A DNA stretch of 64,000 bases from an uncultured Bacilli bacterium (lineage in GTDB: Bacteria; Bacillota_I; Bacilli_A; RF39; UBA660): assembly GCA_905235065.1 (NCBI GenBank), contig CAJOJR010000001.1:33591-97590 (forward strand), in the 5' to 3' direction. Positions 34,149-51,949 of this stretch are shown piece after piece. Both the position numbers and the translations under genes were made by a program. A model generated the notes under the pieces. That model worked only from the letters and a program-made list of their open reading frames with translations, was not told where the DNA came from and did not search any database. How positions within the stretch are numbered: the stretch's first letter is position 1; each line of letters starts with the position of its first letter.

Positions 34149-34914
34149 AATTATCCTCCAATATATCTTTATTTATTAGTGAATTTACCCCCTCAATATT
34201 TATTTTCGTAGGAGAAATACCTATTAAAGCCTTTTGTATATTTCCTATTCCATTAACAAAAACATTATCTGCCTTAAAACACTTCATCAAAAAAGAATCA
34301 TTTACTGTATTGCATGGGATTAATAAATATTTTAAATTTTTCTCATTTAGTAATCCTTTATCAATTATAATAATTGGTATTTTAGTATATGGATTTAAAA
34401 TATTCATACCAGTGTCATTATAAGCAGTTATATTAATAACTTGTCCTTTAATATATATGTCAATTTTATATTTTAATGAATAAAATTTTTTTATTTTCAA
34501 TAAATATTTTGTATATATATAAATTATTAATGGGGCAAATATGATTAATAAAACTATATTATTAAATAAAGAATTAATTATATTATTTTTTAATTTCAAA
34601 TTTATTAAATATATAAATCCACCTAGTAATAAACTATTCAAAAAGAAATAAACTAGATTATTTAAAAAATATTTTATGTTTTTATATCCGAAAGCTATTA
34701 GAATCATAATAATAGCTAATAAAAATTTTAAAAAAAACAAAAGCAAGTTGTTTAATTTAACAAATAAAACTATTATACTCAGACTCCCAAATAAAGCTGA
34801 TAATATAAGTTTTCTTAATTTAGTGTTCCTTCTTAATAATATGGATACTGAATATAAAATTAAAAAATCACAAAAGAAATTTATTAAAATTAATATGTCA
34901 ATATAAACTTTCAC
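34105..34914 (-). CDS. spoIIGA: Sigma-E processing peptidase SpoIIGA (membrane aspartic protease).
   Basis: It starts MKVYIDILILINFFCDFLILYSVSILLRRN..., which mirrors the SpoIIGA N-terminus (MKIYLDVIWLLNF...). It is polytopic and lies upstream of sigE. Confidence 0.75.
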   Translation of the reverse strand: MKVYIDILILINFFCDFLILYSVSILLRRNTKLRKLILSALFGSLSIIVLFVKLNNLLLFFLKFLLAIIMILIAFGYKNIKYFLNNLVYFFLNSLLLGGFIYLINLKLKNNIINSLFNNIVLLIIFAPLIIYIYTKYLLKIKKFYSLKYKIDIYIKGQVINITAYNDTGMNILNPYTKIPIIIIDKGLLNEKNLKYLLIPCNTVNDSFLMKCFKADNVFVNGIGNIQKALIGISPTKINIEGVNSLINKDILEDNYENNRNNKKIVKKK

Positions 34915-35863: not shown

Positions 35864-36916
35864 TTATTTTAATATCCATGCATTACATACATATCTTTCG
35901 CCAGTATAAGAATATCCTCCGGGATCATTAACTAATTTATTGTTAACAACTAGCATTGAAGATCCTCCCCCATCTAAATTAGCAGCATTATATGCACCAT
36001 ATTGATATAAGAAATCTGCAAGTTGGACCATTGAAAGTCCTGGTGAACCTTTACCTCTTCCATCTCCAACTGCAAATAAAACTATCCCATCTTTTCTTTG
36101 AGCAATAGCAGTTCTAGGAGCATACCCCCAACCACCATCACCTTTCATTTCGGCTTTTTCACCATTCATTATTAAGAAAGGTCCAAATGTCATTGCATCT
36201 CTCATTCCATTTTTTATTGCAGTTTCTGCATCATCGTAAGTAAGTACTAAGACATTATCTTCATTAAACCCTATTAGTTGATTGGTCCCCGGAGAACCAG
36301 AAATTATCTTACCGCTTGAAATAACAGCTCCGTATGGTGTTAAAGCACCAGTTGTTCTATTTCTATTATATCCAGATGCATTAACAGCAGCAATTGCCTC
36401 ATTGTCTCTTGCAATAGCTGTCATTACTTGACCACCTCTCGAAATCTTTTTGGAAAGTACCATTGATATTCTTGAAGGATCATATACTACTAACATATGA
36501 ATAGTATTTCTTTTATATTCAACAGTAAATACTTTGTATAAATCATTTCCTTCATCTCTTTTTAAAACTTGCTCCTCATATTCATTAGCATAGACACCAG
36601 TATCAACATTAGTGTTATTGAATTTAATTGCACTCGTATCTGTTGTATCATCAAATTTCTTAACAACATTAGCTTTCATAGTTTCACTTATAATATAATC
36701 ATTATAAAATATATATGCTAAGTATTGGTGTGTCCTAGTTGTCATTGCAGTAGTAATTAGTAGATTTCTAAAATATGATATTGGTCCATACGTTATAAAA
36801 AAACCTAAAAACACTAATATATCTAAAATAACAACAGTTATCATTAATTTATCTTTTTTCTTTTTTTCCATAAAACTACTCCACCACATATGGTTCTTCT
36901 TTTGAACCCTTACCAC
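35864..36916 (-). CDS. Phosphodiester glycosidase family protein (NAGPA/DUF2233-like) with an N-terminal membrane anchor. The start is probably at the internal MEKKKKDKLMITVV....
   Basis: The C-terminal ...AANLDGGGSSMLVVNNKLVNDPGG... is characteristic of the phosphodiester glycosidase domain. It has one TM. Confidence 0.55.
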   Translation of the reverse strand: MVRVQKKNHMWWSSFMEKKKKDKLMITVVILDILVFLGFFITYGPISYFRNLLITTAMTTRTHQYLAYIFYNDYIISETMKANVVKKFDDTTDTSAIKFNNTNVDTGVYANEYEEQVLKRDEGNDLYKVFTVEYKRNTIHMLVVYDPSRISMVLSKKISRGGQVMTAIARDNEAIAAVNASGYNRNRTTGALTPYGAVISSGKIISGSPGTNQLIGFNEDNVLVLTYDDAETAIKNGMRDAMTFGPFLIMNGEKAEMKGDGGWGYAPRTAIAQRKDGIVLFAVGDGRGKGSPGLSMVQLADFLYQYGAYNAANLDGGGSSMLVVNNKLVNDPGGYSYTGERYVCNAWILK

Positions 36917-38168
36917 TTTTTATAGCCATATTTGAATCCAAATATAATACTGGTCTTATATTTTTATTTTTATTTACTGAATCAGAATATACAGTTTTAT
37001 CTGAAGCTACTGTATACACAACGCTATTTTTAGAATCAGAAGGAGTCAAAGTATATACATTTTCATATTCAAGAAGCCCTAAATCATCAATGTTAAGAAG
37101 TCCAACATTTGCTTCAATACTAGTTTGATAAATAGAATTATAATCATAATCATTATCAGAAGTATATACTCCTACAAACCATTTTCCTTTAACAATCTTT
37201 TCTTTTAATTCGTCTGCAAAACTTTTATAATAATCTCCATTTAAGTATTTATATATATATGAATTTTCGAAAGTATTATATTTTTTATCAAATATATTTT
37301 TATTTTCTAAAATTCCATCTAATACCACCTTGGTTCCTATTTCGTTTTGATCTATTATTTTCCAAACACTATCATTAAAACTTATATATTCATTTATTCC
37401 CTTTTGATTTAAATAATTAGTTCCCGGATTTCCAACTGCATATGGATTTTCAACACTTCCATCTCCATAGCTATATTCCACTTCACTTGATAAAGTGATT
37501 ACCGGTAATATTTCATAATGGTGTGTGACTTTTGTCTTTTTAACTCCGCCAGTATTTGAAACATAATATTGAGATTCTTCGCTCATATTGCTTAGCCAAA
37601 ATTCTCTTTCACTTTTTATAAATCCATCTAGTCCACCAGTAATTTGATAATCGCTTATTGAAGGAATACCTATTAAATATTCTTCTTTCTCATTACATGT
37701 AATATTTTCCATATCTGATACATCATCTAAACATACACTAGTTTTTGATAAATAAATATCTGGGTCTTCAAGATTTCTATATATAATGTTTTCTTCATCA
37801 TTTAAATATTTACTTATAAATGATTCTTTAAATACTGATGAATTCGAAAGAATAGGACCACTATTTAAAGCTATTAATCTAATTTTTCCATCTGACTCTA
37901 TTTTTTCTATTCTCCATAAATTGCCAGAATATTTAACATAGTTTTTATCGTTTTTATAGTTATAAACATATCCATCTTCTAATTGAGATAAATCATTATT
38001 TACATATGAATTTGTTAATACCGTTTTATAAAGTGGCGTATGTTCAACTTCATTCCAATTAGAATTTTTATGATATATGTTATAGTAATGATAAAATCTA
38101 TATCCATAAAATGCTATACAAGCTAATATAAATAATATACTACATATTTTAAAAATCTTTTTTCCCAT
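36876..38168 (-). CDS. Secreted or membrane-anchored hypothetical protein (430 aa) with internally repeated modules.
   Basis: It has an N-terminal TM/signal anchor. Two similar segments (…GNLWRIEKIESDGKIRLIALNSG… and …NDSVWKIIDQNEIGTKVVLDG…) suggest a tandem domain repeat. Confidence 0.4.
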   Translation of the reverse strand: MGKKIFKICSILFILACIAFYGYRFYHYYNIYHKNSNWNEVEHTPLYKTVLTNSYVNNDLSQLEDGYVYNYKNDKNYVKYSGNLWRIEKIESDGKIRLIALNSGPILSNSSVFKESFISKYLNDEENIIYRNLEDPDIYLSKTSVCLDDVSDMENITCNEKEEYLIGIPSISDYQITGGLDGFIKSEREFWLSNMSEESQYYVSNTGGVKKTKVTHHYEILPVITLSSEVEYSYGDGSVENPYAVGNPGTNYLNQKGINEYISFNDSVWKIIDQNEIGTKVVLDGILENKNIFDKKYNTFENSYIYKYLNGDYYKSFADELKEKIVKGKWFVGVYTSDNDYDYNSIYQTSIEANVGLLNIDDLGLLEYENVYTLTPSDSKNSVVYTVASDKTVYSDSVNKNKNIRPVLYLDSNMAIKSGKGSKEEPYVVE

Positions 38169-38270: not shown

Positions 38271-39530
38271 ATGAGTATGAATAAATTAAAAGATAAGAAA
38301 AATTTTTTTTATTTTGCATTAATGATTTTACCAATCATTGATGTTTTAACATCTATAAATGCAAGATTTAATACGTTTCACTTTTCACCGGGAATAATTG
38401 TACGAGGAATTATTTTTCTTATTTCTGTTTTATATATTTTGTTTTCTAAAAATATAAATAAAGAAATGAGAAAAAAGGCTATTATATATTTTGTTATTTT
38501 TTTAATATATTTTTCTATATTTATGTTAGTGAGACTAAATGATTCAATTGACAAGAGCCACTTGATATCTGAAATAAAATTCTTTTTTAAATTTTGGTAC
38601 TTCCCTATTACATTAATATTTTTAAATAATTTAGATTTAGATAAAGAAAAATTAAATAAAGCCCTAAAAGTAAGTACACTATTATATGCGATAGGTATAT
38701 TTTTACCTCTTGTTACAAACACCTATTTTGAATCATATAGTTATTCACCATACAAAGGTGTTGTTGGGTGGTTCTATTCTGCAAATGAACTAGGAAGTTT
38801 ATTATCAATGAATTTAATATTACTTTATTTGAATCTTGATAAAAAGAACATTTTAATAATGTTATTAAATATATTTACATTAGTAATAATAGGAACTAAA
38901 GTTTCATTATTCTCAGTAATTATTATAACTGTATCAATGTTTTTAATCTTTCATCTAACCACTAAAAAGAAATCTAATAAAACTAAAAAACCAAAAAAGG
39001 TAAAATATTCACTCATAATACTAATTATTTCTGTCTTTTTAATATTATTTAGTTCAACCGCAAGAGATGTGTTAGAAAGACTTAATGTAAATAAAAATAA
39101 TATTATAGAAACAAAATTAACTGGATTTGGAGCTGTTCTTGATAAACTATTAAGTGGTAGATATACATTTTTATTAGATACATTAGATCAATATAAAACC
39201 GAAAGTATTGCTGTTAAAACATTTGGCTTAGGTTTTACTTATAACAATCATTTAACAAGCATAGAAATGGATACATTTGACATAATGCTTAGATATGGAA
39301 TACTTGGATTTATAATATATTTTGCTCCACTTATATATTACTTATATGTTTATATTAAAGATAACAAAAAAACAAAACCAATACCTTTCTTAATATGTTC
39401 TATTGGTATTATCCTAGCATTATTAATTGCCACAAGCTGTGGACATATGGTATCAGCACCAACCGCAAGTATATATGTTGCATTATGTGTTGCATTAATG
39501 AGTACTAAATATACAAAAGAAGAAGATTAA
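38271..39530 (+). CDS. O-antigen ligase / Wzy_C-family polytopic membrane protein.
   Basis: It is a 419 aa protein with about 10-12 TM segments, including a large periplasmic-loop-type segment. It is divergent from the upstream genes and convergent with the LCP gene. Confidence 0.45.
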   Translation: MSMNKLKDKKNFFYFALMILPIIDVLTSINARFNTFHFSPGIIVRGIIFLISVLYILFSKNINKEMRKKAIIYFVIFLIYFSIFMLVRLNDSIDKSHLISEIKFFFKFWYFPITLIFLNNLDLDKEKLNKALKVSTLLYAIGIFLPLVTNTYFESYSYSPYKGVVGWFYSANELGSLLSMNLILLYLNLDKKNILIMLLNIFTLVIIGTKVSLFSVIIITVSMFLIFHLTTKKKSNKTKKPKKVKYSLIILIISVFLILFSSTARDVLERLNVNKNNIIETKLTGFGAVLDKLLSGRYTFLLDTLDQYKTESIAVKTFGLGFTYNNHLTSIEMDTFDIMLRYGILGFIIYFAPLIYYLYVYIKDNKKTKPIPFLICSIGIILALLIATSCGHMVSAPTASIYVALCVALMSTKYTKEED

Positions 39531-39531
39531 A

Positions 39532-41004
39532 TTAATCTTCTTCTTTTTCTTCCAATACTTCTTTTATTTTTGCTTTTGCTTCTTCAACTGTTTTTTGATC
39601 TGGAAACATTACAGATAATGATGAATTTGGATACGAATATGTTGGTTCATTACTGCCTGTTCCATTTAGATTAGATGTAATAAATTCCCATCCTCTCATA
39701 TCACTTAATTGAAATTGAACCACAGATGTTATATTATCAGTTGATAAATTTGATTCAAATGTTCCTTCTAAAGCTTTTAAAATTCTATCATAATTTTGAA
39801 TTAAATTTTTAGAAGAAGTTAACTTATCAACAACCAATTGTATTACTTGTTGTTGATTTTCTCCTCTATGTCTATCCCCTGTTTTATACGCATGTCTTTC
39901 TCTAGCAAATGCTAAAGCACATTTACCGTCAACCTTGTTAGCTCCAGGTCTAAATACACAACTTTTATCTGTCCAACATTTAAAACTATAATCAACGTCA
40001 CTATTAATTGTTATACCGCCTATCGCATCAACTAATTTAACTACCGAATTAAAATTTACTCTTGCATAGTAATCTGCTTTATAACCTAATATATCTTCAA
40101 CTGTGGCTTTTGAAAGTTCAAGACCTCCTAATACACCAGCATGTGTAAGTTTATCTCTAAGTCCACTTTTACCATGTAAATGAACATAATAATCTCTAGG
40201 AATATTTACTAACAATATTTTTCTAGTATCAGGATTAACTACAATAAACATATTAACATCACTAAGACTTCTAGAAGGCATTGAATCAGTTCTAGTATCA
40301 ATACCACTTAAATACACTATAAATGGTTGTTTCATTATGTTTGATTCACTAGTAACATTTTCAAGTATTTTTTCAAATTCAATTTCATCTATCTTTTTTA
40401 AGTTGTCTTTATATTTTTCATCATTTTCAATCAATGCATCATAACTTCCAGCATTTATTAATATTATTTTTTCATTATCTTCAAGTAACCCATCAAATAA
40501 GTTATGATAGTCTTCAACTTCTTCCAGAGTTACTTTTAATCTTTTAGTAACTATTTCTTTTAATTTATCAATTTCAGTTATGTCTTCATAATAATATACA
40601 GTTTTATTTTTTATATCTGATTTATTATTATAAACAGAGTTTTTATTGACTACAACATAATAAATATCTTTTGTAGATTTAACATGAATACCATTATTTA
40701 GAAAATCATATGTTTGATATAATTCATAAGTCACATATGACTCCCCAGCAATAAATATAATCGCTAGTATATTTATTATTAAAAGAATACTTTTTTTGAT
40801 TCTTTTATTGATACAAATAATAAAATATATAAACCACAATAATCCTAAAGTTATACTTATTGCATAGAAATATTTACTAGGAAGTACATTTAATTTATAT
40901 ATCATATATAAAAACGCAACTAAAACTAGTAATGCTATAAAACATAGCATTTTACTAAATACTCTTACTTTCTTTTTACTTTTTTCTTTACTCATTTTGG
41001 TCAC
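39532..41004 (-). CDS. LytR-CpsA-Psr (LCP) family glycopolymer-to-peptidoglycan transferase.
   Basis: It has an N-terminal TM, an accessory domain and the LCP core ...IVVNPDTRKILLVNIPRDYYV...LTHAGVLGG.... Length is 490 aa. Confidence 0.75.
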   Translation of the reverse strand: MTKMSKEKSKKKVRVFSKMLCFIALLVLVAFLYMIYKLNVLPSKYFYAISITLGLLWFIYFIICINKRIKKSILLIINILAIIFIAGESYVTYELYQTYDFLNNGIHVKSTKDIYYVVVNKNSVYNNKSDIKNKTVYYYEDITEIDKLKEIVTKRLKVTLEEVEDYHNLFDGLLEDNEKIILINAGSYDALIENDEKYKDNLKKIDEIEFEKILENVTSESNIMKQPFIVYLSGIDTRTDSMPSRSLSDVNMFIVVNPDTRKILLVNIPRDYYVHLHGKSGLRDKLTHAGVLGGLELSKATVEDILGYKADYYARVNFNSVVKLVDAIGGITINSDVDYSFKCWTDKSCVFRPGANKVDGKCALAFARERHAYKTGDRHRGENQQQVIQLVVDKLTSSKNLIQNYDRILKALEGTFESNLSTDNITSVVQFQLSDMRGWEFITSNLNGTGSNEPTYSYPNSSLSVMFPDQKTVEEAKAKIKEVLEEKEED

Positions 41005-41006
41005 CT

Positions 41007-42014
41007 CTATTCAATAGTTACATTCTTTTTTGTAATGTGAACTTCAATATAAGTTCTACCATCACTTACACTAATTTCACTTCCATCTAAGTATGTATAT
41101 TTTGTTTTACTCTTTCTAGATTCTTTACTCCATTTAATTGGAACAGCATATCCATTTGTTATGTAGTATCCATCTCCGGAACCAACCGTTTTTAAATCCC
41201 AATATTTTCCGTCAGGCATTACACTATAATTAATTTTTTGTACAATTACGTTTTTAGTTGTAAATTCTTCTCCACTTGCATGATCTTTAGTTACTTTATT
41301 ATTTACAATTCTAGTATACATTTTACTTTCTTCATTATAGTCAAATACTGTTGTAATATTACCATATGGTAAAGTTATCTTTTTAGCTTCTTTTGCATTT
41401 TCCATATTACTTAAATCAGTATCTTTTGCATTATAATTTAAAAGTATTGTTTTATCACTCTCAAGATTATAACTCTTTTTATTCTTAACATAATCATATA
41501 CTTTATTAGTGTTTAAATATACAGTATGTTCAGTAGCAAGATGCTCTTTATTATCTCTCCACATAGATCCTTCACTTACTATACCTTGGACATAATCAAT
41601 AATATTCTTTTTCATTTCATCTTTTGCATAATGACTCCATCCATAAGATACAAATATTGCATCACTTTCATATGAAAAATCTATAAAATTATGTCTTGCA
41701 CTTCTAATTGTTCCTACATTTATATCTTTTACATCTTTATATAATGCAAGTAATCTTGAAGTAAAACCTTCAGTAGGAATCTCATATATTAAATAAGCTT
41801 TATTAAGACCTTCCTGCACTTTTACTGCAACCGGTGTGTTATTAACCGAGATTGCAAGCGGTCTTGTTTTAGAATTAACATCAATTATATCAACAACATC
41901 TTTTGGTTCTTCTTTCTTAGGAGTTAATTTTTCTTCTGATTTACCACATCCAGTCAATATAATTATAAATACAATTGATAATAAAAATATTTTAACTATT
42001 ATGCTCTTTTTCAT
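41007..42014 (-). CDS. DUF3048 (YerB-like) lipoprotein.
   Basis: It has the lipobox LTGC and is 335 aa, with the two-lobed DUF3048 pattern often found beside LCP genes. Confidence 0.5.
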   Translation of the reverse strand: MKKSIIVKIFLLSIVFIIILTGCGKSEEKLTPKKEEPKDVVDIIDVNSKTRPLAISVNNTPVAVKVQEGLNKAYLIYEIPTEGFTSRLLALYKDVKDINVGTIRSARHNFIDFSYESDAIFVSYGWSHYAKDEMKKNIIDYVQGIVSEGSMWRDNKEHLATEHTVYLNTNKVYDYVKNKKSYNLESDKTILLNYNAKDTDLSNMENAKEAKKITLPYGNITTVFDYNEESKMYTRIVNNKVTKDHASGEEFTTKNVIVQKINYSVMPDGKYWDLKTVGSGDGYYITNGYAVPIKWSKESRKSKTKYTYLDGSEISVSDGRTYIEVHITKKNVTIE

Positions 42015-42549
42015 TTTTTATACCTCTTTTATAACCTAATTTATAAATAAAATAATATGTTCCATAAAATATTATACCACATATACCACCTATACTATCT
42101 ATTAAAACATCCTTTAACTGTCCAGTTCTGCCAACCACAAATATTTGATGATATTCATCTAAACTAGCAAGTGCAATTATCAATAATACTGTTATTATAA
42201 ATGATAACACAAATCTTTTATTTTTAAATATTATATTCGCCATTAAAATAATCAAAAATGATAATACGAAGTATACAAAAGCATGCATAACTTTTCTAAG
42301 GGGTGTATTTAATAAAGCACTCGCTTTTTCTAATTTAACTTCATTAGGATGACTATTAGTTATTCCATATTTATTTGTTATATCTAAGGCATCTTCTATA
42401 AAAACAGTAATAATGTTAGAACTTTTTCCATTGGAGTTTTTATTATTCATTGAACTTAATTTGTATATTCCAAATATCCATAAAATTATTATTAATGATA
42501 AAACTACTATTAAAATTATTCTTTTTTTCATATTTCCTCTATAGTTCAA
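41992..42549 (-). CDS. VanZ family membrane protein.
   Basis: It is polytopic, with the VanZ signature ...SLDEYHQIFVVGRTG.... Confidence 0.65.
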   Translation of the reverse strand: MNYRGNMKKRIILIVVLSLIIILWIFGIYKLSSMNNKNSNGKSSNIITVFIEDALDITNKYGITNSHPNEVKLEKASALLNTPLRKVMHAFVYFVLSFLIILMANIIFKNKRFVLSFIITVLLIIALASLDEYHQIFVVGRTGQLKDVLIDSIGGICGIIFYGTYYFIYKLGYKRGIKNEKEHNS

Positions 42550-42771
42550 TCTCTAAAGTTTTCTTTATAACATCATTCCATATTTTAGAAAATGTATTAA
42601 ATGGCATATTATATATTTATGAACATTTATTCCTTCAATATTTTCAGTATATACATTACCTCCAACACGATCTCTTTTATCAATCACTAATACTTTTTTA
42701 TCCATATTTTTAAGTCTGTTTGCAACTGTTGAACCAAATAAGCCAGATCCTACTATTAAATAATCATACAT
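42550..42771 (-). pseudogene. glf: Remnant of the UDP-galactopyranose mutase (glf) gene: the N-terminal FAD-binding part only, with a frameshift and premature stop.
   Basis: MYDYLIVGSGLFGSTVANRLKNMDKKVLVIDKRDRVGGNVYTENIEGINVHKY matches the Glf N-terminus. The next Glf block (FNTFSKIWNDVIKK, like FHTNNKEVWDYV) continues in a different frame and then stops. A full Glf is about 370 aa. Confidence 0.7.
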
Positions 42772-42783
42772 ATTTTAAACCTC

Positions 42784-44307
42784 CTATAATTTTTTAAATA
42801 TTTTCTTTCTTATTATATCTTTATAAAATATATAATTCTTATCTTTCCTATATACTATAATGAATATAGCAATTGATAGAGTTATTACACTCATAAACTT
42901 CAATATTAACCACAACCAATTATTACACGGAATAAAGTTATTAATAAAAATAATAACTGACGCTATTAAAATGCCGATAATTGTATACTTAAAATACATA
43001 GCAAAGTAATCTTTTAAATTTATAGTTAGTGATTTCTTTGTAATAACATAAGGTTCCCACCAAAAATTAGTTAGCAAGCATGAAATAATAGTCCCTAAAA
43101 CTACTCCTGCTATTCCTAAATATTTAGCCAAAAGTATTGATGTAAATATATTAATAACAGCTTCTATAACTGGAGAATATTTATCTTTATCATAGTTTCC
43201 TGTTGCTTCTCTAAAAGACATACAAGTTCTTCTCATACCAAATAAATAATAGTTAATAGCAATCGTATAAACAGAGATTGTATTTAACAAATATTTTTTT
43301 CCAAGCCATAAACTAATAAAAGGGTTAAATAAGCATATTAAACAAATAGAACTTATTATATGAATCATATAATCAGCAAAGAATGTTTTTTTAAAAATAT
43401 CTGTCATTTTATTTTTGTTTCCATCTACTTGCAAATTTCCTATACTAGCAATAACGGAACTAAATATTTGTGTAACAATATTTTTTAATGCGGTCAAAAT
43501 TAATATATAATTAGAGTATAATCCAACTTGAATTAATCCTAGCACTTTTGAAATAACGATGTTATCAGTTGAATTTAATACTACTCCCCCAAACTTATGA
43601 TAAAACATGGCTTTTACATTAAGGATGATTTCTTTATAATCTTTTTTATTGATTTTCTCCACATTCTTATCCTTTAAAAATGGATACATCTTATCTGCTT
43701 TCCTATTTAATAATATGTTTTCTGCGAGAGTCATCATTATTTGAACTGCTAAAAATAATATATAATTTTTAGTTAATAACAATATTACTATTTGAACAAC
43801 ATTAAGCATAAAAAAGAATGAGTATCTATAAACTGTAGCAATATATCTTTGTTGATCACCTATAATCAATAATCTTTTATGAGAGAATAAGTATGATGCT
43901 GAAGTATTTAATACAAACAATAAATATATTAAGTCTAAATTTGGAATGTTTGGTACTTCATTCATTAATAATTTGTAAAAGGGTAATGCTATTAAACCCA
44001 GTATTGTAATTATTATAGCTATAGATATATATACTTTTTTGTAAAACTGGATTAAGCTTTTTATTTTTTCATTATCATTTTCTGAAATTGGCTTATATAA
44101 TTGATAAGACATTGCCGTAACAAAACCAAGTTCAGTTAAACTTAATATTGTTAATATATTAGTAAATAAGCCACTTAAACCTAAGTATTCAGAAGATAAT
44201 GTTTTAACAAAAACAAGTCTAGAAACTAAGCTAATTAGTATTCCTAAACCTTGTCCAGCCATAGCAAATATTAAATTTCTTATTGAATTATCTGTTCTTG
44301 ATTTCAT
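42784..44307 (-). CDS. Wzx-type polysaccharide flippase (MOP superfamily oligosaccharide flippase).
   Basis: It is 507 aa with about 12-14 TM. The N-terminus ...RNLIFAMAGQGLGILISLVSRLVFVKTLSSEYLGLSGLFTNILTILSLTELG is typical of Wzx/PST proteins. Confidence 0.7.
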   Translation of the reverse strand: MKSRTDNSIRNLIFAMAGQGLGILISLVSRLVFVKTLSSEYLGLSGLFTNILTILSLTELGFVTAMSYQLYKPISENDNEKIKSLIQFYKKVYISIAIIITILGLIALPFYKLLMNEVPNIPNLDLIYLLFVLNTSASYLFSHKRLLIIGDQQRYIATVYRYSFFFMLNVVQIVILLLTKNYILFLAVQIMMTLAENILLNRKADKMYPFLKDKNVEKINKKDYKEIILNVKAMFYHKFGGVVLNSTDNIVISKVLGLIQVGLYSNYILILTALKNIVTQIFSSVIASIGNLQVDGNKNKMTDIFKKTFFADYMIHIISSICLICLFNPFISLWLGKKYLLNTISVYTIAINYYLFGMRRTCMSFREATGNYDKDKYSPVIEAVINIFTSILLAKYLGIAGVVLGTIISCLLTNFWWEPYVITKKSLTINLKDYFAMYFKYTIIGILIASVIIFINNFIPCNNWLWLILKFMSVITLSIAIFIIVYRKDKNYIFYKDIIRKKIFKKL

Positions 44308-45676
44308 TTTTGGTTACCTCAAATTTTTTTATTCTAGTGAATAAGCTTTTTATTTCTTTTGTGTCATGTTCTAAAAAATATAGTAAACAATAAAGCACAA
44401 CAAATTTAAATATAGTATTTATATGAACAAATGTGCTAAATAAATATTCATCTCTAACTTGGTCTATTACCATATATAAATACATCACATAAAATATTAT
44501 TGATAAATTTGTCTTCTTTTTGTTCATAATAATATATAGCAAAGAAAATATAAAACCATTTATAAACTGCAATATCACTACGCCAAGATATCCAAAATCA
44601 TGATAATACCTTTTGGATGAGGTATATATATTACTTTGCATTTTTACATTATTTTTAGTGTAGAAAGATGTCCACTTAGTAGTAATTGGTTGAATATAAT
44701 TAGATAAATGAAGTTTATAAGCAACATTCTGAATCCCTCTAAATGTTTCTTCACCAAAAAGCTTTGGCTTTTCCTCTAGAGAATCTAAGTATTTTTGCAA
44801 AGACGGTATTGGTGCTCCAAAATAAAATGTTGTATATTCTATTATATTAGCTTTTGTATTTCTTCCAAGCAATGGCAAAACCAAATAAAACATAGCAGCC
44901 CCGGATACTAAAAATATAATTAAATATTTCCAATATATTTTTAAAATATTTTTGTATGTGTTTTTCTTATGCGCATGTAAAACACACAAAATTGAAAAGA
45001 ATAAAACATATACTATAACCTGCATCCTACTACCTATTAATAAACTCATTAATATACATATTAATATATTAGAAAAATAAACAATACTATTTTTAGTTTT
45101 AAACAATTCTTTCTTATACATGGAACAGCTTAGTAAGTATATATTCACATAACAAATAACCTCGGACACTTTTTGTAATTGAGCTACAATAAAATTAATA
45201 TGAATACCAGATTTAATATACTCAGTTGAAAACAAAATAGAAGTAGATCTATAAGTTTTAATCATGTTAAAAATACCACCATTATAGCCAACTATTGATG
45301 CTATTCTATGTACCTCAAAAAGTACCAAAATGAAAACCAAAAAGACAAATACTAATTGTATTAAAGATTTCCATAATGGTATATTCTTAATTTCATTTTT
45401 AAAACTTTTTATTTTATAATTTTTATCAAGATATTTTCTACAAACAAATTCACCCATATTAAAAAATAATATAGACACAACAACAATTATGGTAGCTTTT
45501 AACGTTAAAACTTTTACATCATTCCAAAAAAGTAATCCTAAAAAAGCACAAATTAAAGATAATAATATAGAAATATTATATAAAAAAGATGGGGATAAGT
45601 AGTCGTCGTTATATAATTTCAGGTTCAAATAAATCATACCTACTATAAAACATATTAATAATATATATGTATACAT
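44288..45676 (-). CDS. Polytopic membrane protein, putative Wzy-like polysaccharide polymerase.
   Basis: It is 462 aa with about 11 TM plus a large loop. It sits between the flippase gene and the modification genes. No sequence motif was assignable by eye. Confidence 0.35.
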   Translation of the reverse strand: MYTYILLICFIVGMIYLNLKLYNDDYLSPSFLYNISILLSLICAFLGLLFWNDVKVLTLKATIIVVVSILFFNMGEFVCRKYLDKNYKIKSFKNEIKNIPLWKSLIQLVFVFLVFILVLFEVHRIASIVGYNGGIFNMIKTYRSTSILFSTEYIKSGIHINFIVAQLQKVSEVICYVNIYLLSCSMYKKELFKTKNSIVYFSNILICILMSLLIGSRMQVIVYVLFFSILCVLHAHKKNTYKNILKIYWKYLIIFLVSGAAMFYLVLPLLGRNTKANIIEYTTFYFGAPIPSLQKYLDSLEEKPKLFGEETFRGIQNVAYKLHLSNYIQPITTKWTSFYTKNNVKMQSNIYTSSKRYYHDFGYLGVVILQFINGFIFSLLYIIMNKKKTNLSIIFYVMYLYMVIDQVRDEYLFSTFVHINTIFKFVVLYCLLYFLEHDTKEIKSLFTRIKKFEVTKNEIKNR

Positions 45677-45680
45677 TTTA

Positions 45681-47573
45681 TCACTTCCCTATTTTATGAG
45701 AATATGCTTTCTTGTAAATGGAAAAATAAGGCAGTTTTATTTTTAATAATCTTTTCATAAAACCTATCTTCCATCCGGATTCACCAAAATCTTTTTTTAA
45801 CGATTTTAAATGAAAAATATAATATAGAATGCTTTTGGGTGATGCCATTTTTCTATTAAACATATTATCATTAATTATATTACCAAATATAGTGACAAAT
45901 TTGCAAGATGGATTAATAAAACAATTTGTAAATATATTTATGTATTCATAACTATTATCACGGCTAATATAATCAATGTATTTTGAAATATCTCTAATAA
46001 AATCAACTGCGGATCTCTGAATTAATTCTATTGTTGAATCATTTGCGTTAGGTTTCCCTAATACATAATATGGATCCTTATCATTATATTTGATAGTTGT
46101 TCCGTGATGCGAAGAAAACATTTTTTCAAACAAGTCTCTAAATGAGTAGACTCTAAATTGAATGTCATCAATATAATCTTTATTTTTATAGAATAAATAT
46201 CCAATAGAAGTATTATTATTAATTTCTTTATATTTAGAAGAACTATCTATTCCAAAATATAACCCTCCAACTAATTTTTGGGGATATAAGTCATATAGAA
46301 TTGATTGAGTAGTTCCCTTCCAACCCATATCAATCAAATAAAAACTTTTAACATTCAAAGAATCAAAATAATTATTTAAATTGTTATATTCTTTTTTTCC
46401 TAAAAAAGAGATTTTTTCTTTTAAACAATTTTCATATAATTCTATAAATTCTTTGTTTTCTACATAAAAATCTTTATTATACTTTTTTTCAATATCAAAT
46501 GACCTGATATTCTTGATATGTTTTATCACTTCTTCATCTAGTAAATTCAAATTATCAACTAATTCACAAATATTAAGTCTATTATTTGTTATTGAATCTT
46601 TAAAACAAGCATAAGTGTTGTTTTTATATAAATATGGTAATCTTAAACTTCTTCTAGAAACGTAAAAATATTCTGACACATCAATAGTTTTTGGAAATAA
46701 AATATTGTGTATTTCATGTAACATTTTCATATCTCTAGCACAAAATAATAATTTTGAATTTCTATCATGCAATTGACTGTTGATCCAAAGGGAAAAATAT
46801 AAGCAAACGGGACCTAATACTTCATATCCAAATCTATAATAGTAATTACTATTATTTTTATTATTACAAATAGAATATATTAGATTATTATTTAAACTAT
46901 TTAAATCAATATTATTTTTGTTTAAAAACTTGTTCTTATTCGTTGGTTTAATAAGTAAAGTTTTTATTCCAATCAATTTCGGATACAAAAAATCTCCTTT
47001 TTCAGCATCTCCAATATGAAAAACATCCTTTGGATTAAATTTATTTAAAGAAACAAGTTTTTTAAACAATTTACCAGTACTTTTTTTGACTCTATACTCA
47101 CTAGAAACATATATTTCATCGATAAAATATCCACAATTAGATAATAATCTTTTTAATGTTTTAGCATCATAATACATATCAGAAACACAAATAATTCTTT
47201 TTTTGTTTTCAATAGCAAAATCATATATGCATTTCATTTCTTCATTAGCAACACAAAAAATTTCTTCCGCTTGGAGTTCTAATTTTTTTAATAAAACTTT
47301 ATCATACTTGTTATCAAAGCATTCATATATTTCATCAAAAGTAGCTTCTTCTACTTTGTACTTCGCTTTAGCAAGTCTAGAAGCTTCTATTCTCTTTGTT
47401 GTAAAATCAATAATTTTATTTTTAGATATTTCATTATATTTTTTTTCTACATAGGAAAAAATATCTGTAGAAGTTAAACAATTTCTACAAATTAATGTAT
47501 CAAAAATATCAAAAGATATAACATCTCTTTTTAAAATATTTTTTTTGATTCTATTAGAAATACTTTTAATCAT
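45681..47573 (-). CDS. Large (630 aa) protein with an N-terminal HAD-superfamily phosphatase domain and an uncharacterised C-terminal domain of about 400 aa.
   Basis: HAD motif I (FDIFDTLI), motif II (ICVSD), motif III Lys and motif IV (HIGDAEKGD) are present in the first roughly 210 aa. The remainder has no recognisable motif. Confidence 0.5.
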   Translation of the reverse strand: MIKSISNRIKKNILKRDVISFDIFDTLICRNCLTSTDIFSYVEKKYNEISKNKIIDFTTKRIEASRLAKAKYKVEEATFDEIYECFDNKYDKVLLKKLELQAEEIFCVANEEMKCIYDFAIENKKRIICVSDMYYDAKTLKRLLSNCGYFIDEIYVSSEYRVKKSTGKLFKKLVSLNKFNPKDVFHIGDAEKGDFLYPKLIGIKTLLIKPTNKNKFLNKNNIDLNSLNNNLIYSICNNKNNSNYYYRFGYEVLGPVCLYFSLWINSQLHDRNSKLLFCARDMKMLHEIHNILFPKTIDVSEYFYVSRRSLRLPYLYKNNTYACFKDSITNNRLNICELVDNLNLLDEEVIKHIKNIRSFDIEKKYNKDFYVENKEFIELYENCLKEKISFLGKKEYNNLNNYFDSLNVKSFYLIDMGWKGTTQSILYDLYPQKLVGGLYFGIDSSSKYKEINNNTSIGYLFYKNKDYIDDIQFRVYSFRDLFEKMFSSHHGTTIKYNDKDPYYVLGKPNANDSTIELIQRSAVDFIRDISKYIDYISRDNSYEYINIFTNCFINPSCKFVTIFGNIINDNMFNRKMASPKSILYYIFHLKSLKKDFGESGWKIGFMKRLLKIKLPYFSIYKKAYSHKIGK

Positions 47574-47603
47574 CTTACTCCCTCCTAGTGAACATTACAT
47601 TTT

Positions 47604-48401
47604 CTATTTTGAATAATGTTCATTAGTGTTTTTAGGTGTCATATACTCTCCATACATATGAGTTAAATATTCATCATACATTTCAGGACCGGTCAACTTA
47701 ATGTTTTCAAATTTATATTCTGTTGGAGTTCCAAAATATTCTTTTGGTACTATCTCTCTTGTTCTATAGGCCCCCATTATTGTTCCTATATATTTACTTT
47801 TTTCAATCTTTTGTCTCTTTAGCAAATCATCAATGTGTTTAAGTCTTTTTTGAGGATTAATAATTTTTTTGGTAGGCAATATTTTTCCTAAAAATATTAA
47901 TATTTTCTCATATTTTTTTCTTTTTCTTACAGGATCTATTGTATCAATATAATACCAGCTAACAAGCATTCTATTAAATAAAATTCTAAAGTAATATATC
48001 TTTCTTAAAATTATATTATTTGGTGTACCATCAATTGGAAATATATCTATAAATAAATGTGATTTTTCCCCAAGGTGTTCATATCTTTTTTCAACAATTT
48101 CAGTGTTTAGGTCTTCTATTCTTGGCAAATAATACCTATATTTTTTATTGTTATAAAGTGTTGTTAACTTAAACTCTTTTGGAAGTTCTTTATTTGCCAC
48201 TTGTAAGAATTTTTCATAGTCATCCCTCATCATAGCTATATCAACATCATCATCCCAAGGAATAAAGCCTTTGTGTCTTATTGCTCCTAAAAAAGTTCCG
48301 CCAATTATATAATATTTTAAATTATACTTTTGACATATTTTTAAAAATTCTTTTACTAATCTCAAATCAATCTTATGTATTTCCTCTAGGGAATATTTCA
48401 T
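47604..48401 (-). CDS. LicD-family phosphotransferase (CDP-alcohol/phosphocholine-type transferase with nucleotidyltransferase fold).
   Basis: It has ...LKYYIIGGTFLGAIRHKGFIPWDDDVDIAMMRDDY... with the LicD DxD motif. Length is 265 aa. Confidence 0.75.
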   Translation of the reverse strand: MKYSLEEIHKIDLRLVKEFLKICQKYNLKYYIIGGTFLGAIRHKGFIPWDDDVDIAMMRDDYEKFLQVANKELPKEFKLTTLYNNKKYRYYLPRIEDLNTEIVEKRYEHLGEKSHLFIDIFPIDGTPNNIILRKIYYFRILFNRMLVSWYYIDTIDPVRKRKKYEKILIFLGKILPTKKIINPQKRLKHIDDLLKRQKIEKSKYIGTIMGAYRTREIVPKEYFGTPTEYKFENIKLTGPEMYDEYLTHMYGEYMTPKNTNEHYSK

Positions 48402-49015
48402 TTATACTTCACCTCTTTCCAGTTATAGTATTTCTCCAAATATTTCTTATTCTCCTTAGAATCATTAGACCATGGTCCTTTTATAATTGTATTCTTATAT
48501 AAATAGTAATCGGGGACAAATATATCTTTTGCTTTTTCAAAATAATTTAAAACTGCCACTTTAATTTCAGAATTATTAAAATATTTTTCAATTTCCAATT
48601 TGGCTGATAAAACACTATGTCCCGTATCAATTGAATCATCAACTAATAATATCTTCCTACATTTTTTATATTTTTTCCAAATATTTTCATCAAAAGAAAT
48701 ATTTCTATTAGAATTTGAAGAATGAACACTTGAATTCATTTCTTTTTTTCTTAAATATATTTTTAATTTATTAGGAATTAAATTCAAAAGTGGCCTTAAT
48801 ATTTTTTTTAATTTTCCACCACTTCTACTCGCAGTTACTTCAAGTAATGGACAAGTATTAAAATCGGAAAAATCCTTCCCTATCAAATATGATCCCTTAG
48901 CTATAAAAATAACTAAATCATATTTATATTCTTTATTTAATTTACTATATAATTTTTTATCTGTTTCTTTTAAGTCTTTTATTAATAATTCTTGATAATT
49001 CATTCCATTTACCAC
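48398..49015 (-). CDS. Phosphoribosyltransferase (type I PRTase)-like protein.
   Basis: It has the PRPP-binding motif ...KILLVDDSIDTGHSV... and is 205 aa. It is embedded in the glycopolymer operon, overlapping its neighbours. Confidence 0.55.
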   Translation of the reverse strand: MVNGMNYQELLIKDLKETDKKLYSKLNKEYKYDLVIFIAKGSYLIGKDFSDFNTCPLLEVTASRSGGKLKKILRPLLNLIPNKLKIYLRKKEMNSSVHSSNSNRNISFDENIWKKYKKCRKILLVDDSIDTGHSVLSAKLEIEKYFNNSEIKVAVLNYFEKAKDIFVPDYYLYKNTIIKGPWSNDSKENKKYLEKYYNWKEVKYK

Positions 49016-49712
49016 CTTTAATTAGTTTTAATAGTCTAACAACTCTTGTGTTAAAATGAGCAAACTTAATACTTTTTTTCATTTTAAAATTTGATTTATT
49101 AATCATCTCTTTGATATTGTTTTTAGTTACAACTTCAGAAGTAATGCAGTAGTTTCTACCAATTTCATAAAATGTATGGGCATCACTACCAACTACTTTT
49201 ATTAAGTTATATTTATTAGCTATTTGATTTTGCTTAACACTAAATTCTTTTTTTATATTTCTACCATTGTGACACTCAATTAAATCTACATTTTTGTATA
49301 TCCTGTTTAATGCTTCAGGATTAATTACTGTTTTGTATCTTTTTTCATCATATGGATGAGGAATATAAACCACTCCATTTTGACTTTTTATTTGACTCAC
49401 CGTTTCTTCTGCTGATAAATTTGGAAATATTTTATTTTTTAAAAATAGTCCAATTATTTCACCATCTTTTGTAAAAATTTCCTCTCCAACTATTATGTTT
49501 ATGTTATGTTTTTCAAAAAAGTTTTTAAACTTTAGTGCACCTTCGATTTCATTGTGATCTGTAATAGCTATGCAATTAATCTTTTTAAATTTACACATTA
49601 AAAAAAGGAGATATTTTCCAAGAAAACTATCTGCTGAAAACTTGGTATGAACATGAAATTCAATTTTGTACTTTTTCTTAATATCTCTCTTCATAATGCT
49701 ACTTTGCTCCAT
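48957..49712 (-). CDS. PHP-domain metal-dependent phosphoesterase (TrpH/YciV-like).
   Basis: It has the PHP signatures ...EFHVHTKFSADS..., ...AITDHNE..., ...IPHPYD... and ...GSDAHT.... Confidence 0.6.
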   Translation of the reverse strand: MEQSSIMKRDIKKKYKIEFHVHTKFSADSFLGKYLLFLMCKFKKINCIAITDHNEIEGALKFKNFFEKHNINIIVGEEIFTKDGEIIGLFLKNKIFPNLSAEETVSQIKSQNGVVYIPHPYDEKRYKTVINPEALNRIYKNVDLIECHNGRNIKKEFSVKQNQIANKYNLIKVVGSDAHTFYEIGRNYCITSEVVTKNNIKEMINKSNFKMKKSIKFAHFNTRVVRLLKLIKGGKWNELSRIINKRLKRNR

Positions 49713-50388
49713 GTCTCGTAAATATTACTTTCATAGTTTTAAAAATACATAATAAATCTAATTTAAAACCCATGTTTTTTACATAGTAATATTCCAATTC
49801 TAACCTTTTTTTATAGGTAGTTGCACTTCTTCCATTAACAGCCCACCACCCAGTAATTCCTGGTTTAACACTTTCATAAATTTTATGATTGCCTTTATGT
49901 TCATCAAGTTCACCAGGTATTAATGGCCTTGGGCCGATTAAAGAAAGACTGCCAAATAATACATTTATAAATTGAGGCATTTCATCAATTGAACATTTTC
50001 TTAAAATTTTTCCAATTTTAGTTATTCTAGGATCATCATCTAACTTTTGAAATTTTTCCCATTCTTCTCTATATTTCTTTTGCTTTAAAAGTTTTTTTAA
50101 TTCTTCATCAGCATTCCAGCACATACTTCTAAATTTATACATCTTAAAGACTTTACCATTTTTACCAACTCTTTTGTGAGAATAAAAAATAGAATGAAAG
50201 TCACCACTAAAAATATAGAATAATTTAACTATTAAAGATACTGGCACCAAAAAAACAATTCCTATAATAGAAAAAACAATATCAAAAATTCTTTTAATAA
50301 AAAAATAAAAAGCTTTTCTTAATTTTGATAAAGTATTACTTATTACCATAGAAGTTGTTAAACTAACATCATTATTCATACTTAACAC
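49699..50388 (-). CDS. Initiating sugar-phosphate transferase (bacterial sugar transferase family; small WbaP/CpsE-type undecaprenyl-phosphate hexose-1-phosphate transferase).
   Basis: It has one TM plus the conserved C-terminal catalytic domain ...KMYKFRSM...DEMPQFINVLFGSLSLIGPRP.... Length is 229 aa. Confidence 0.75.
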   Translation of the reverse strand: MLSMNNDVSLTTSMVISNTLSKLRKAFYFFIKRIFDIVFSIIGIVFLVPVSLIVKLFYIFSGDFHSIFYSHKRVGKNGKVFKMYKFRSMCWNADEELKKLLKQKKYREEWEKFQKLDDDPRITKIGKILRKCSIDEMPQFINVLFGSLSLIGPRPLIPGELDEHKGNHKIYESVKPGITGWWAVNGRSATTYKKRLELEYYYVKNMGFKLDLLCIFKTMKVIFTRHGAK

Positions 50389-50532
50389 ACCTTTTCTAAC
50401 ACATTTTATAATTTAAATCTTTAAATTTTCATAACTATTATATCATATAATAAAAGCTAAAAACAACAAAACAAAAATGAATTTTACATTTAACACAATA
50501 TTTTAAAATTGATACAACAAAAAAAGAAAATC
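50389..50532 (-). promoter_or_regulatory. Intergenic region upstream of the sugar-transferase gene with a TATAAT -10 element and RBS AAAAGG.
   Basis: The gene-direction sequence ...tatgaTATAATagttatg... lies about 70 nt upstream of the ATG. Confidence 0.3.
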
Positions 50533-50979
50533 TTATTTTTCTTTTTCATTAGGCTCAGGAATCTGATCTATCCCTGATATTGGATTTTGTAATTTCAAAT
50601 CCTCTTTTATTTTTGTTGTTGAAATACCTTCAGTTCTATCTAAATAAACTACTTCACAGTAATCTTTTAAATACTCAAATTTATCACTTCCGGCCCAATC
50701 TCCACCCATAACAACTACATCAACTTGGTATTTTTTCACATCATCAATTTTTTGTTCCCAGCTTTCTTCAGGTATTACCAAATCAACATATCTAACTGCT
50801 TCAAGCATTTTCTTTCTTGTTTCATAATTATGATAAGTTTGCTTTCCTTTTAAATTATTAAATTCTTCCGTTGAGAGAGCAACGATAAGATAATCTCCTA
50901 ACGCTTTTGCTCTTTGCAATAATCTTATATGACCATAATGCAATAAATCAAACGTTCCATAAGTTAGTATTCTTTTCAC
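50533..50979 (-). CDS. tagD: Glycerol-3-phosphate cytidylyltransferase (CDP-glycerol synthase), apparently with a GTG start.
   Basis: It is 148 aa with the cytidylyltransferase HxGH motif (...YGTFDLLHYGHIRLL...) and RTEGISTT. Confidence 0.85.
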   Translation of the reverse strand: MKRILTYGTFDLLHYGHIRLLQRAKALGDYLIVALSTEEFNNLKGKQTYHNYETRKKMLEAVRYVDLVIPEESWEQKIDDVKKYQVDVVVMGGDWAGSDKFEYLKDYCEVVYLDRTEGISTTKIKEDLKLQNPISGIDQIPEPNEKEK

Positions 50980-50989
50980 ACAATCACCT

Positions 50990-51045
50990 ACTTCTAATTG
51001 ATCTTATAATAGTATAACAAAAATATATATTATAAACAAGCAAAA
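50990..51045 (-). promoter_or_regulatory. Candidate tagD promoter (-35 TTGCTT, extended -10 TGTTATACT).
   Basis: These were read in the gene direction: TTGCTTgtttataatatatattttTGTTATACT, about 35 nt upstream of the RBS. Confidence 0.3.
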
Positions 51046-51348: not shown

Positions 51349-51388
51349 ACAACTTAATTATAACAAATAAAAAGGACTAGTTGTAGTC

Positions 51389-51949
51389 CTAAATAAACTT
51401 AAATACATTATTAACTAATTCTAATGTAAACACTATTGCTAAAGCACCAGTATATTTAACTTGATATCTTCCAAATTCATAAACACTAACAACCTTATCA
51501 GCAAGATTCACAATATGTGATTCTTTATATTGAGGCATTTTATGTGTTACAGGAAACATGTGTGATAGTATAATATCTTTTTCTGTATCATTTATTTCAA
51601 AATATTTAGAGGCATTTTCATAAGCCTTTTCTGGATGAACTTTGAATCTTTTTGCATTTAAATTATCTAATTCATCATTCAAAAAGAAATCATGCATTAA
51701 AGCTCCTCTTGTTGTTGAAATATAATCCAACTTTAAAAACTTGGAAATACCATAACTCATTTTAGCAACTCTATTAATGTGTTCTATTCTTGATGTGCCA
51801 TGGTGATTTTCCTTAGATAATTTTTTGTATTTATTATTTTTTATAAATTCTTTATATATTTTTTTATATTCCATATTACTCACTTCTTGCCATAACAAAA
51901 GCTTAATAATTATATCATGATTTTTATCAAAAGTAAAGTTTATATCCAT
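51389..51949 (-). CDS. HD-domain metal-dependent phosphohydrolase.
   Basis: It has ...HHGTSRIEHINRV... (H...HD-type metal ligands) and ...LMHDFFL.... Length is 186 aa, possibly shorter if it starts at MEYKK.... Confidence 0.6.
   Translation of the reverse strand: MDINFTFDKNHDIIIKLLLWQEVSNMEYKKIYKEFIKNNKYKKLSKENHHGTSRIEHINRVAKMSYGISKFLKLDYISTTRGALMHDFFLNDELDNLNAKRFKVHPEKAYENASKYFEINDTEKDIILSHMFPVTHKMPQYKESHIVNLADKVVSVYEFGRYQVKYTGALAIVFTLELVNNVFKFI

Follow-up and report, generated by a model that had tools for sequence, protein, structure and literature searches.

The window analysed here is a 64,000-nucleotide stretch (positions 33,591 to 97,590) of contig CAJOJR010000001.1, from an uncultured Bacilli bacterium of the RF39 lineage (assembly GCA_905235065.1). 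It has a GC content of about 25% and carries nearly all of its genes on the minus strand. On that strand lies a Wzx/Wzy glycopolymer operon, in which the 5' to 3' gene order is TagD, a phosphoglycosyl transferase (PGT), a PHP-family phosphoesterase (hereafter PHP), a protein resembling the type I phosphoribosyltransferases (hereafter PRT), LicD, a 630-residue protein, Wzy and Wzx (Table 1). The PHP/PRT pair is the subject of this report. A preliminary description of the sequence had seen in it a possible split or alternative version of the dual-domain enzymes that install ribofuranose from phosphoribosyl pyrophosphate (PRPP).

The PGT gene is separated from that of PHP by 4 nucleotides, and the stop codon of the PRT gene and the start codon of LicD share the sequence ATGA. 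As had been proposed, the PRT gene overlaps the phosphoesterase gene within the glycopolymer operon, by 47 nucleotides when counted from the ATG of the PRT and by 59 from the GTG to which its open reading frame (ORF) extends. This out-of-frame overlap suggests translational coupling, and could account for the conservation of the C-terminal tail of PHP as well. The length of 205 residues originally given for the PRT holds for the ORF read from the GTG. The start is probably the ATG at 49003, however, since this codon is preceded by an AGGTGG-like site and since a database protein of 201 residues, P0001, is 100% identical to the window PRT.

The PRPP motif LLVDDSIDTGHS occupies residues 118-129 of the 201-residue protein, and the PRPP-binding loop, VDDSIDTGHS, displays both the vicinal acidic pair and the x-x-D-T/S-G-x-T/S pattern. 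Together with the five-stranded α/β core of the type I PRT superfamily and a Pfam PF00156 score of 28.0 bits (gathering cutoff 26.3), these features agree with the original assignment of the protein as type I PRT-like with a PRPP motif. The loop is also highly conserved: among 117 representatives of the family, Asp122 and Asp123 are present in all 117, Asp126 and Gly128 in 116, and Thr or Ser at position 127 in 116.

The closest structures to the PRT are 6-oxopurine PRTs of the XGPRT type (7kl6, 1vdm, 4z1o and E. coli XGPRT), with which it has a C-terminal PDYY...PW segment in common. This likeness would favour an ordinary purine or pyrimidine salvage enzyme that, along with a nucleotidase, came to lie in the operon by chance. 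However, identity to the XGPRT-type enzymes is only 12-27%, and the scores against salvage models fall far below their equivalog cutoffs (17.6 bits against 150 for the HGPRT model TIGR01203, and 17.0 against 106.8 for the PyrE model TIGR00336). Furthermore, the hood tryptophan conserved in 1vdm and XGPRT, which we take to be the purine-stacking residue, aligns with Ile173 of the PRT, a position that is aliphatic in 103 of the 117 representatives. The window protein also differs from the XGPRT-type enzymes in standing in a glycan-assembly context with a phosphatase partner. Equivalog scores, hood residue and genomic context together led to the rejection of an ordinary salvage PRT, in accord with the initial view that the protein has no obvious role in nucleotide salvage, and the PRT groups apart from the bona fide purine and pyrimidine PRTs.

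A further difference from the XGPRT-type enzymes is a basic, family-specific helical insert of about 55 residues (approximately 58-112), which is presumably located where the flexible catalytic loop sits in salvage PRTs. Arg60, Lys66, Pro77, Arg85 and Glu88 of the insert are each kept in 104-116 of the 117 representatives, its net charge is +10 in the window PRT (family mean +9.4), and the strongest amphipathic helix of the protein falls within it. In an exhaustive profile search, 1,096 clusters were recovered at E≤1e-3 and 503 at E≤1e-10. The PRT thus belongs to a sizeable and distinct family, separate from the salvage PRTs, and it is a candidate glycan phosphoribosyltransferase.

Its partner, PHP, matches PF02811 and PF13263 in Pfam, has the PHP barrel fold with the conserved metal-binding His, Asp and Glu residues, and was modelled with a pLDDT of 93.6. 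Capsule loci of Gram-positive bacteria often contain tyrosine phosphatases of the PHP family, and a reading of the pair in conventional terms could therefore also take PHP as a capsule-regulating enzyme of the CpsB/Wzh type. This assignment was rejected, as close similarity to CpsB/YwqE was not found, and a scan of the operon genes yielded no kinase gene of the CpsC/CpsD type. Moreover, the synteny with glycan genes is kept across Bacilli, Clostridia, Negativicutes and Synergistaceae. It is thus very improbable that the locus holds either a stray salvage PRT with its nucleotidase or a CpsB/Wzh-type phosphatase. PHP is a candidate ribose-5-phosphate phosphatase acting on the product of the PRT.

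The association of the two proteins was followed in a genome scan with one genome per species, which yielded 64 loci, 63 of them with a PRT ORF and used for the counts. The carriers are Bacilli, Lachnospiraceae and other Clostridia, Veillonella, Megasphaera, Anaeroglobus, Bacillaceae, Synergistaceae and a few others; the locus most closely related to the window (80% identity) comes from a metagenome-assembled genome. A phosphatase stands immediately beside the PRT in 58 of the 63 loci. In 46 of the 63 the immediate neighbour is PHP, upstream in 44 and downstream in 2, and in 41 of the 44 upstream cases the 3' end of the PHP ORF overlaps the 5' end of the PRT ORF in a different frame, by 41-92 nucleotides in longest-ORF calls. 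The pairing of PHP with the PRT is far beyond chance.

In nine other loci, the gene beside the PRT (downstream in 8, upstream in 1) encodes a HAD protein that matches the 630-residue protein of the window and is of the phosphoribose phosphatase (PRP) type. The remaining eight loci include one gene fragment, two that stop at a contig edge, and three very distant ones, from Bacteroides and Rhodospirillaceae, in which a PF12710 HAD hydrolase lies directly downstream of the PRT. One stand-alone HAD partner was tested against the PDB, and its best matches were CrpP of Bcs3 from Haemophilus influenzae type b (E 1.6e-7) and the PRP domain of the dual-domain ribofuranosyltransferase 7SHG (E 3.8e-6), both of them phosphoribose phosphatase domains from characterised systems. 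In a neighbour-joining tree, a PHP-associated clade that includes the window PRT is separate from a HAD-associated clade, and the PHP-fused proteins described below are sister to the latter. This topology implies that the type of phosphatase has been exchanged while the pairing was kept. What is conserved, then, is the two-step logic and not the protein families, and the interchange of PHP, PRP-type HAD and other HAD phosphatases constitutes a natural experiment.

No PRT/PHP pair was seen among nucleotide-metabolism genes in the loci examined. Even where the flanking genes are housekeeping genes (L006, L047 and L048), a GT2 domain is fused to the PRT or a GT2-like gene is adjacent. As to whether the pair might be conserved outside glycan loci, then, it was found within them or at least attached to glycosyltransferases.

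Fusion proteins join the same partners within single chains. PHP is fused to the PRT in P0274 (443 residues) and P0277 (397 residues), and a PRP-type HAD is fused to it in P0308 (420 residues). The N-terminus of P0308, FDVFDTLVFRK...TTDMYLP...FVSSEYGLSKRSGHLF...HIGD, has the same motifs of Bcs3 that were aligned to the HAD partner, and a 236-residue Bac_transf gene (PGT) lies directly upstream in the polysaccharide locus of this NCBI genome. P0308 reproduces the architecture of the known dual-domain enzymes, in which PRP is joined to a glycosyl-phosphoribosyltransferase domain (gPRT), except that a type I PRT stands where the gPRT would be. Other fusions link the PRT to GT2 (P0242, P0309 and loci L006, L010, L011, L017 and L018), to LicD (P0320) and to a membrane CDP-alcohol phosphatidyltransferase (P0298). 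In a partial sequence, P0381, the PRT domain adjoins a class I methyltransferase domain.

The wider surroundings of the PRT are likewise those of glycan assembly. A PGT lies at most three genes away in 34 of the 63 loci, typically with only PHP between and at a distance of 660-860 bp. The commonest immediate downstream neighbour is LicD (13 of 51), followed by GT2 (11) and GT4 (6), and then by HAD and others.

These neighbours bear on the possibility that the pair makes a soluble precursor, with the PRT ribosylating a small molecule such as an alditol, an amine or an unusual base, the phosphatase trimming the product, and other enzymes activating or attaching it. Small soluble acceptors are normal for type I PRTs, and a phosphatase partner would also be compatible with a nucleoside-like product. 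Yet no conserved activating enzyme, whether kinase or nucleotidyltransferase, stands beside the pair across the loci, and the fusions to GT2, LicD and CDP-alcohol phosphatidyltransferase, together with the tight adjacency of PGT, suggest instead that the pair acts on the lipid-linked glycan during its assembly. A soluble precursor is therefore considered unlikely.

The first reading of the operon overlooked the nature of the 630-residue protein. Its residues 123-518 align with residues 162-564 of 7SHG from T. composti (E 2.4e-19), and it carries the N-terminal phosphatase motif FDIFDTLI. By homology, it is predicted to be a canonical dual-domain PRP(HAD)-gPRT ribofuranosyltransferase. The operon thus already holds a known route to ribofuranose, and the detection of ribose in the polymer could not discriminate for or against the PRT/PHP proposal in this organism. 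Two candidate ribose-installing systems, PRT/PHP and PRP-gPRT, are present in the one operon. Protein family scans revealed no conventional GT-A or GT-B glycosyltransferase in the operon from TagD to Wzx (42784-50979, minus strand). Since its transferases are only PGT, the PRT-like protein, LicD and PRP-gPRT, a short repeat unit rich in ribose and glycerol-phosphate is suggested.

The co-occurrence of the PRT with a full PRP-gPRT, in the window as well as in L001, L045 and L058, would also fit a non-catalytic PRT, serving as a PRPP or nucleotide sensor or as a scaffold that regulates or assists PGT or PRP-gPRT. In the Salmonella T1 ribofuranosyltransferase, a GT-A partner without catalytic function offers a precedent (PMC11294581). 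Such a role is hard to reconcile, however, with a catalytic acidic triad and phosphate-binding loop that are essentially invariant over the 117 divergent representatives. In most loci, moreover, the pair occurs without PRP-gPRT, and an obligatory phosphatase of three different kinds is difficult to explain for a sensor. The non-catalytic alternative is accordingly regarded as improbable, and more so than a soluble precursor.

The explanation favoured here, with modest confidence, is that the PRT and PHP constitute a two-enzyme, PRPP-dependent ribofuranosyltransferase acting on a lipid-linked glycan, with PHP as the dephosphorylating component. In the first step, PRPP-Mg would be bound by the intact type I PRT site, and a hydroxyl group of the repeat unit growing on its lipid carrier would receive ribofuranose-5-phosphate, with release of pyrophosphate. 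Because of the adjacency of PGT, the likeliest acceptor would be the undecaprenyl-diphosphate-sugar furnished by that priming transferase. The basic amphipathic insert would serve to keep the PRT at the surface of the membrane and to bind the lipid-linked acceptor, which is anionic. In the second step, PHP would strip the 5-phosphate and so allow the next transferase to proceed; in the window operon this would be LicD, with CDP-glycerol made by TagD, and then the canonical PRP-gPRT. Two-step chemistry of this kind has precedent in unrelated folds (PMC11127046, PMC10299916, PMC11294581). More speculatively, if gene order were also the order of assembly, the repeat would consist of a primer sugar (PGT), ribofuranose (PRT/PHP), glycerol phosphate (LicD/TagD) and a further ribofuranose (PRP-gPRT). 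Such a unit would be teichoic-acid-like, recalling the ribose-alditol-phosphate polymers of H. influenzae type b and E. coli K18 (PMC10299916).

Several observations weigh against this proposal. To our knowledge, every characterised type I PRT forms an N-glycosidic bond, and a transfer that yields an O-glycoside would be without precedent in this fold. A second ribofuranosyltransferase is not needed to explain ribose, given the PRP-gPRT in the operon. Proteins resembling full-length PRP-gPRT lie downstream of the PRT in L045 and L058 as well, and the PRT may therefore have a different, cooperative role. Within the PRT model, confidence is lowest for the insert (pLDDT 66-78). Finally, some PHP-PRT-GT2 sub-modules, with a GT2 of about 240 residues, have no PGT nearby. 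In L016 (7337-10950), a GT-C-like DUF6020/PMT_2 protein comes after the module, and in L009 (5950-11271) the module lies between a MatE gene, directly upstream, and a flagellin gene. The acceptor or the pathway at these two loci may differ, for example in favour of extracytoplasmic or flagellin glycosylation.

L016 and L009 also lend some weight to a lipid-linked donor as the product of the pair. The PRT would then put ribose-5-phosphate on undecaprenyl phosphate, PHP would dephosphorylate it, and the undecaprenyl-phosphate-ribofuranose so formed would be used outside the membrane, in the manner of the three-component and mycobacterial DPPRS pathways. The known pathway of this kind indeed runs from PRPP and a lipid phosphate to a phosphatase that can be of various families (PMC11127046), and the basic amphipathic insert would suit a membrane surface. 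On the other hand, the known synthases are UbiA-type integral membrane proteins (PMC11127046), and the PRT is without a transmembrane segment. GT-C and MATE neighbours were found in only 2 of the 63 loci, the dominant context being a PGT directly upstream within Wzx/Wzy loci, and no obvious extra GT-C enzyme or MATE flippase is present in the window. The lipid-donor pathway is judged about as unlikely as the soluble precursor.

A comparison with the systems already described places the proposed PRT/PHP ribofuranosyltransferase among enzymes of the same logic. Two-step PRPP chemistry has been established for the gPRT-PRP, CriT-CrpP and polyprenyl-phosphate phosphoribose synthase (PPPRS) systems (PMC11127046, PMC10299916, PMC11294581, PMC11194591, PMC13171606). 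In the dual-domain PRP-gPRT enzymes (7SHG; Klebsiella O4/O7 and Salmonella T1 STM0726), the chemistry is that proposed here, with transfer of ribofuranose-5-phosphate from PRPP to a glycan and subsequent removal of the 5-phosphate. They too are encoded in polysaccharide loci, and the association with a phosphoribose phosphatase that marks the 7SHG-type gPRTs is found in the PRT family as well, some of whose members are paired with or fused to the same PRP-type HAD. A genuine member of the group lies two genes downstream of the window PRT.

There are nevertheless principal differences. In the dual-domain enzymes, the phosphatase is a HAD and both activities reside in one protein, whereas in the window the phosphatase is a PHP encoded by a separate, overlapping gene. 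Their gPRT is described as a fold of its own and not that of the type I PRTs (PMC11127046, PMC10299916), in contrast to the canonical type I fold of the window protein. Comparison of the PRT family with the gPRT homolog of the window by hhalign gave a probability of 0.15%, that is, no relation, and sequence and fold searches with the PRT returned no match to 7SHG or to Bcs3. Homology of the type I PRT family to gPRT or CriT was thus not found, and the kinship to known glycosyl-phosphoribosyltransferases that the preliminary description had entertained is not borne out. The abstract of Kelly et al. 2022 reportedly likewise describes the gPRT as a new fold. As for the split or alternative route to ribofuranose itself, the conserved pairing, the interchangeable phosphatases, the fusions and the glycan context speak strongly for it; as a literal division of the known dual-domain enzymes it appears not to stand, since those enzymes are without a type I PRT.

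CriT-CrpP of H. influenzae type b Bcs3 likewise carries out PRPP-dependent O-ribofuranosyl transfer followed by the action of a HAD phosphatase, and the catalytic core of CriT is said to resemble that of PRTases (Cifuente et al. 2023, PMC10299916). Bcs3 operates with an alditol-phosphate transferase that uses a CDP-alditol, and LicD and TagD may do the same in the window. CriT, however, is set within the helical bundles of a 1,200-residue machine and is without the vicinal DD, its D680 and E818 being on different loops, whereas the window PRT keeps the classical DD-x-x-D-T-G loop. The polyprenyl-phosphate phosphoribose synthases (mycobacterial DPPRS/Rv3807c and Citrobacter ORF15) also draw their ribose from PRPP and work with 5-phosphatases of varied families, but unlike the window PRT they are integral membrane proteins of the UbiA type, which take a lipid phosphate as substrate and supply GT-C enzymes outside the membrane (PMC11127046).

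No prior description of a PRT and PHP pair in glycan loci was found in the literature, and in the papers on gPRT-PRP, CriT-CrpP and PPPRS a ribofuranose role is ascribed to no canonical type I PRT and to no PHP phosphatase; Kelly et al. 2022 was outside the coverage of both statements. O-ribosylation of neamine in a secondary-metabolite pathway, that of butirosin, is said to need two proteins, BtrL and BtrP, with a PRPP-dependent O-phosphoribosyl transfer and then the action of a dedicated phosphatase. Unexplored 'sequence-based outliers' have been found by means of the PRP marker (PMC11127046), and it is possible that the HAD-paired branch of the PRT family was already partly noticed in this way.

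The PRT/PHP pair would follow the same two-step logic as the known ribofuranose systems, with new protein families. We also advance, tentatively and as somewhat short of probable, the broader claim that the PRT family comprises the first enzymes of the type I PRT fold to make O-glycosidic bonds. Among the cytoplasmic glycan ribofuranosyltransferases that depend on PRPP, they would form a third class by structure, each with a PHP or interchangeable HAD as its phosphoribose phosphatase, and would typically add the second residue onto an undecaprenyl-diphosphate-sugar primer.

The incorporation of ribofuranose into bacterial glycans was explained only in 2022-2024, through three routes: gPRT-PRP, CriT-CrpP, and the use of lipid-linked donors by GT-C enzymes. 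If the present proposal is correct, both steps would gain a new enzyme family, through the type I PRT and PHP, and the chemistry of the type I PRT fold, among the most thoroughly studied in enzymes, would be widened from N- to O-glycosyl transfer. The two genes would then serve as a simple marker predicting ribofuranose in the uncharacterised wall polymers and capsules of gut commensals such as Veillonella, Lachnospiraceae and uncultured Bacilli. Since most of the hundreds of clusters in the family come from Firmicutes and Negativicutes of the gut and rumen, ribofuranose would be widespread, though overlooked so far, in the surface glycans of commensals. As compact soluble enzymes, the pair could also be of use in chemoenzymatic glycan synthesis from cheap PRPP.

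Table 1. Features of the glycopolymer operon and its surroundings, in window positions.
Feature	Position	Strand	Remarks
Terminator-like hairpin	51373-51390		precedes tRNA-Arg(CCT)
tRNA-Arg(CCT)	51348-51272	-	immediately before TagD, where the glycopolymer operon begins
TagD, predicted glycerol-3-phosphate cytidylyltransferase	50533..50979	-	first operon gene; TIGR01518, 184 bits (cutoff 165)
PGT, small polyprenyl-phosphate phosphoglycosyl transferase	49699..50388	-	Bac_transf; WbaP-like catalytic domain
PHP-family metal-dependent phosphoesterase, 245 residues	48957..49694	-	PF02811, PF13263; ORF reaches ATG at 49712
Type I PRT-fold protein, 201 residues from ATG	48398..49003	-	PF00156; ORF reaches GTG at 49015
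LicD-family phosphotransferase	47604..48401	-
Predicted dual-domain ribofuranosyltransferase, 630 residues	45681..47573	-	N-terminal PRP (HAD), C-terminal gPRT; 7SHG homolog
Wzy-type repeat-unit polymerase	44288..45676	-	TIGR04370, 117 bits (cutoff 40)
Wzx-type flippase	42784..44307	-	sub-cutoff matches only: PF01943, 25.9 bits (28.2); NF041503, 35.9 (300)
LCP (LytR-CpsA-Psr) family protein	39532..41004	-

Judged by their family assignments, TagD probably supplies the CDP-glycerol of the operon and PGT probably primes the repeat unit. No terminator-like site was found within 42000-51000, and a promoter scan of this 25% GC DNA returned 82 sites against 84 expected.

Beyond Wzx, the operon strand continues with VanZ-like, DUF3048, LCP and NAGPA genes. 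Wall polymers are attached to peptidoglycan by LCP enzymes. Downstream of the LCP gene, a DUF6273-containing protein (36876-38168) and a NAGPA-type phosphodiester glycosidase (35864-36916) are encoded on the minus strand. An O-antigen-ligase-like membrane protein (38271-39530) is the sole annotated plus-strand gene of at least 100 residues in that part. All three may act on the phosphodiester-containing polymer of the operon, in its processing or its attachment. A low-GC spore-forming Firmicute is suggested as the source of the DNA by SpoIIGA and a sigma factor gene of the sigma-70 family, located at 33462-34914 on the minus strand; the latter is probably sigE, as judged by the adjacency of SpoIIGA only.

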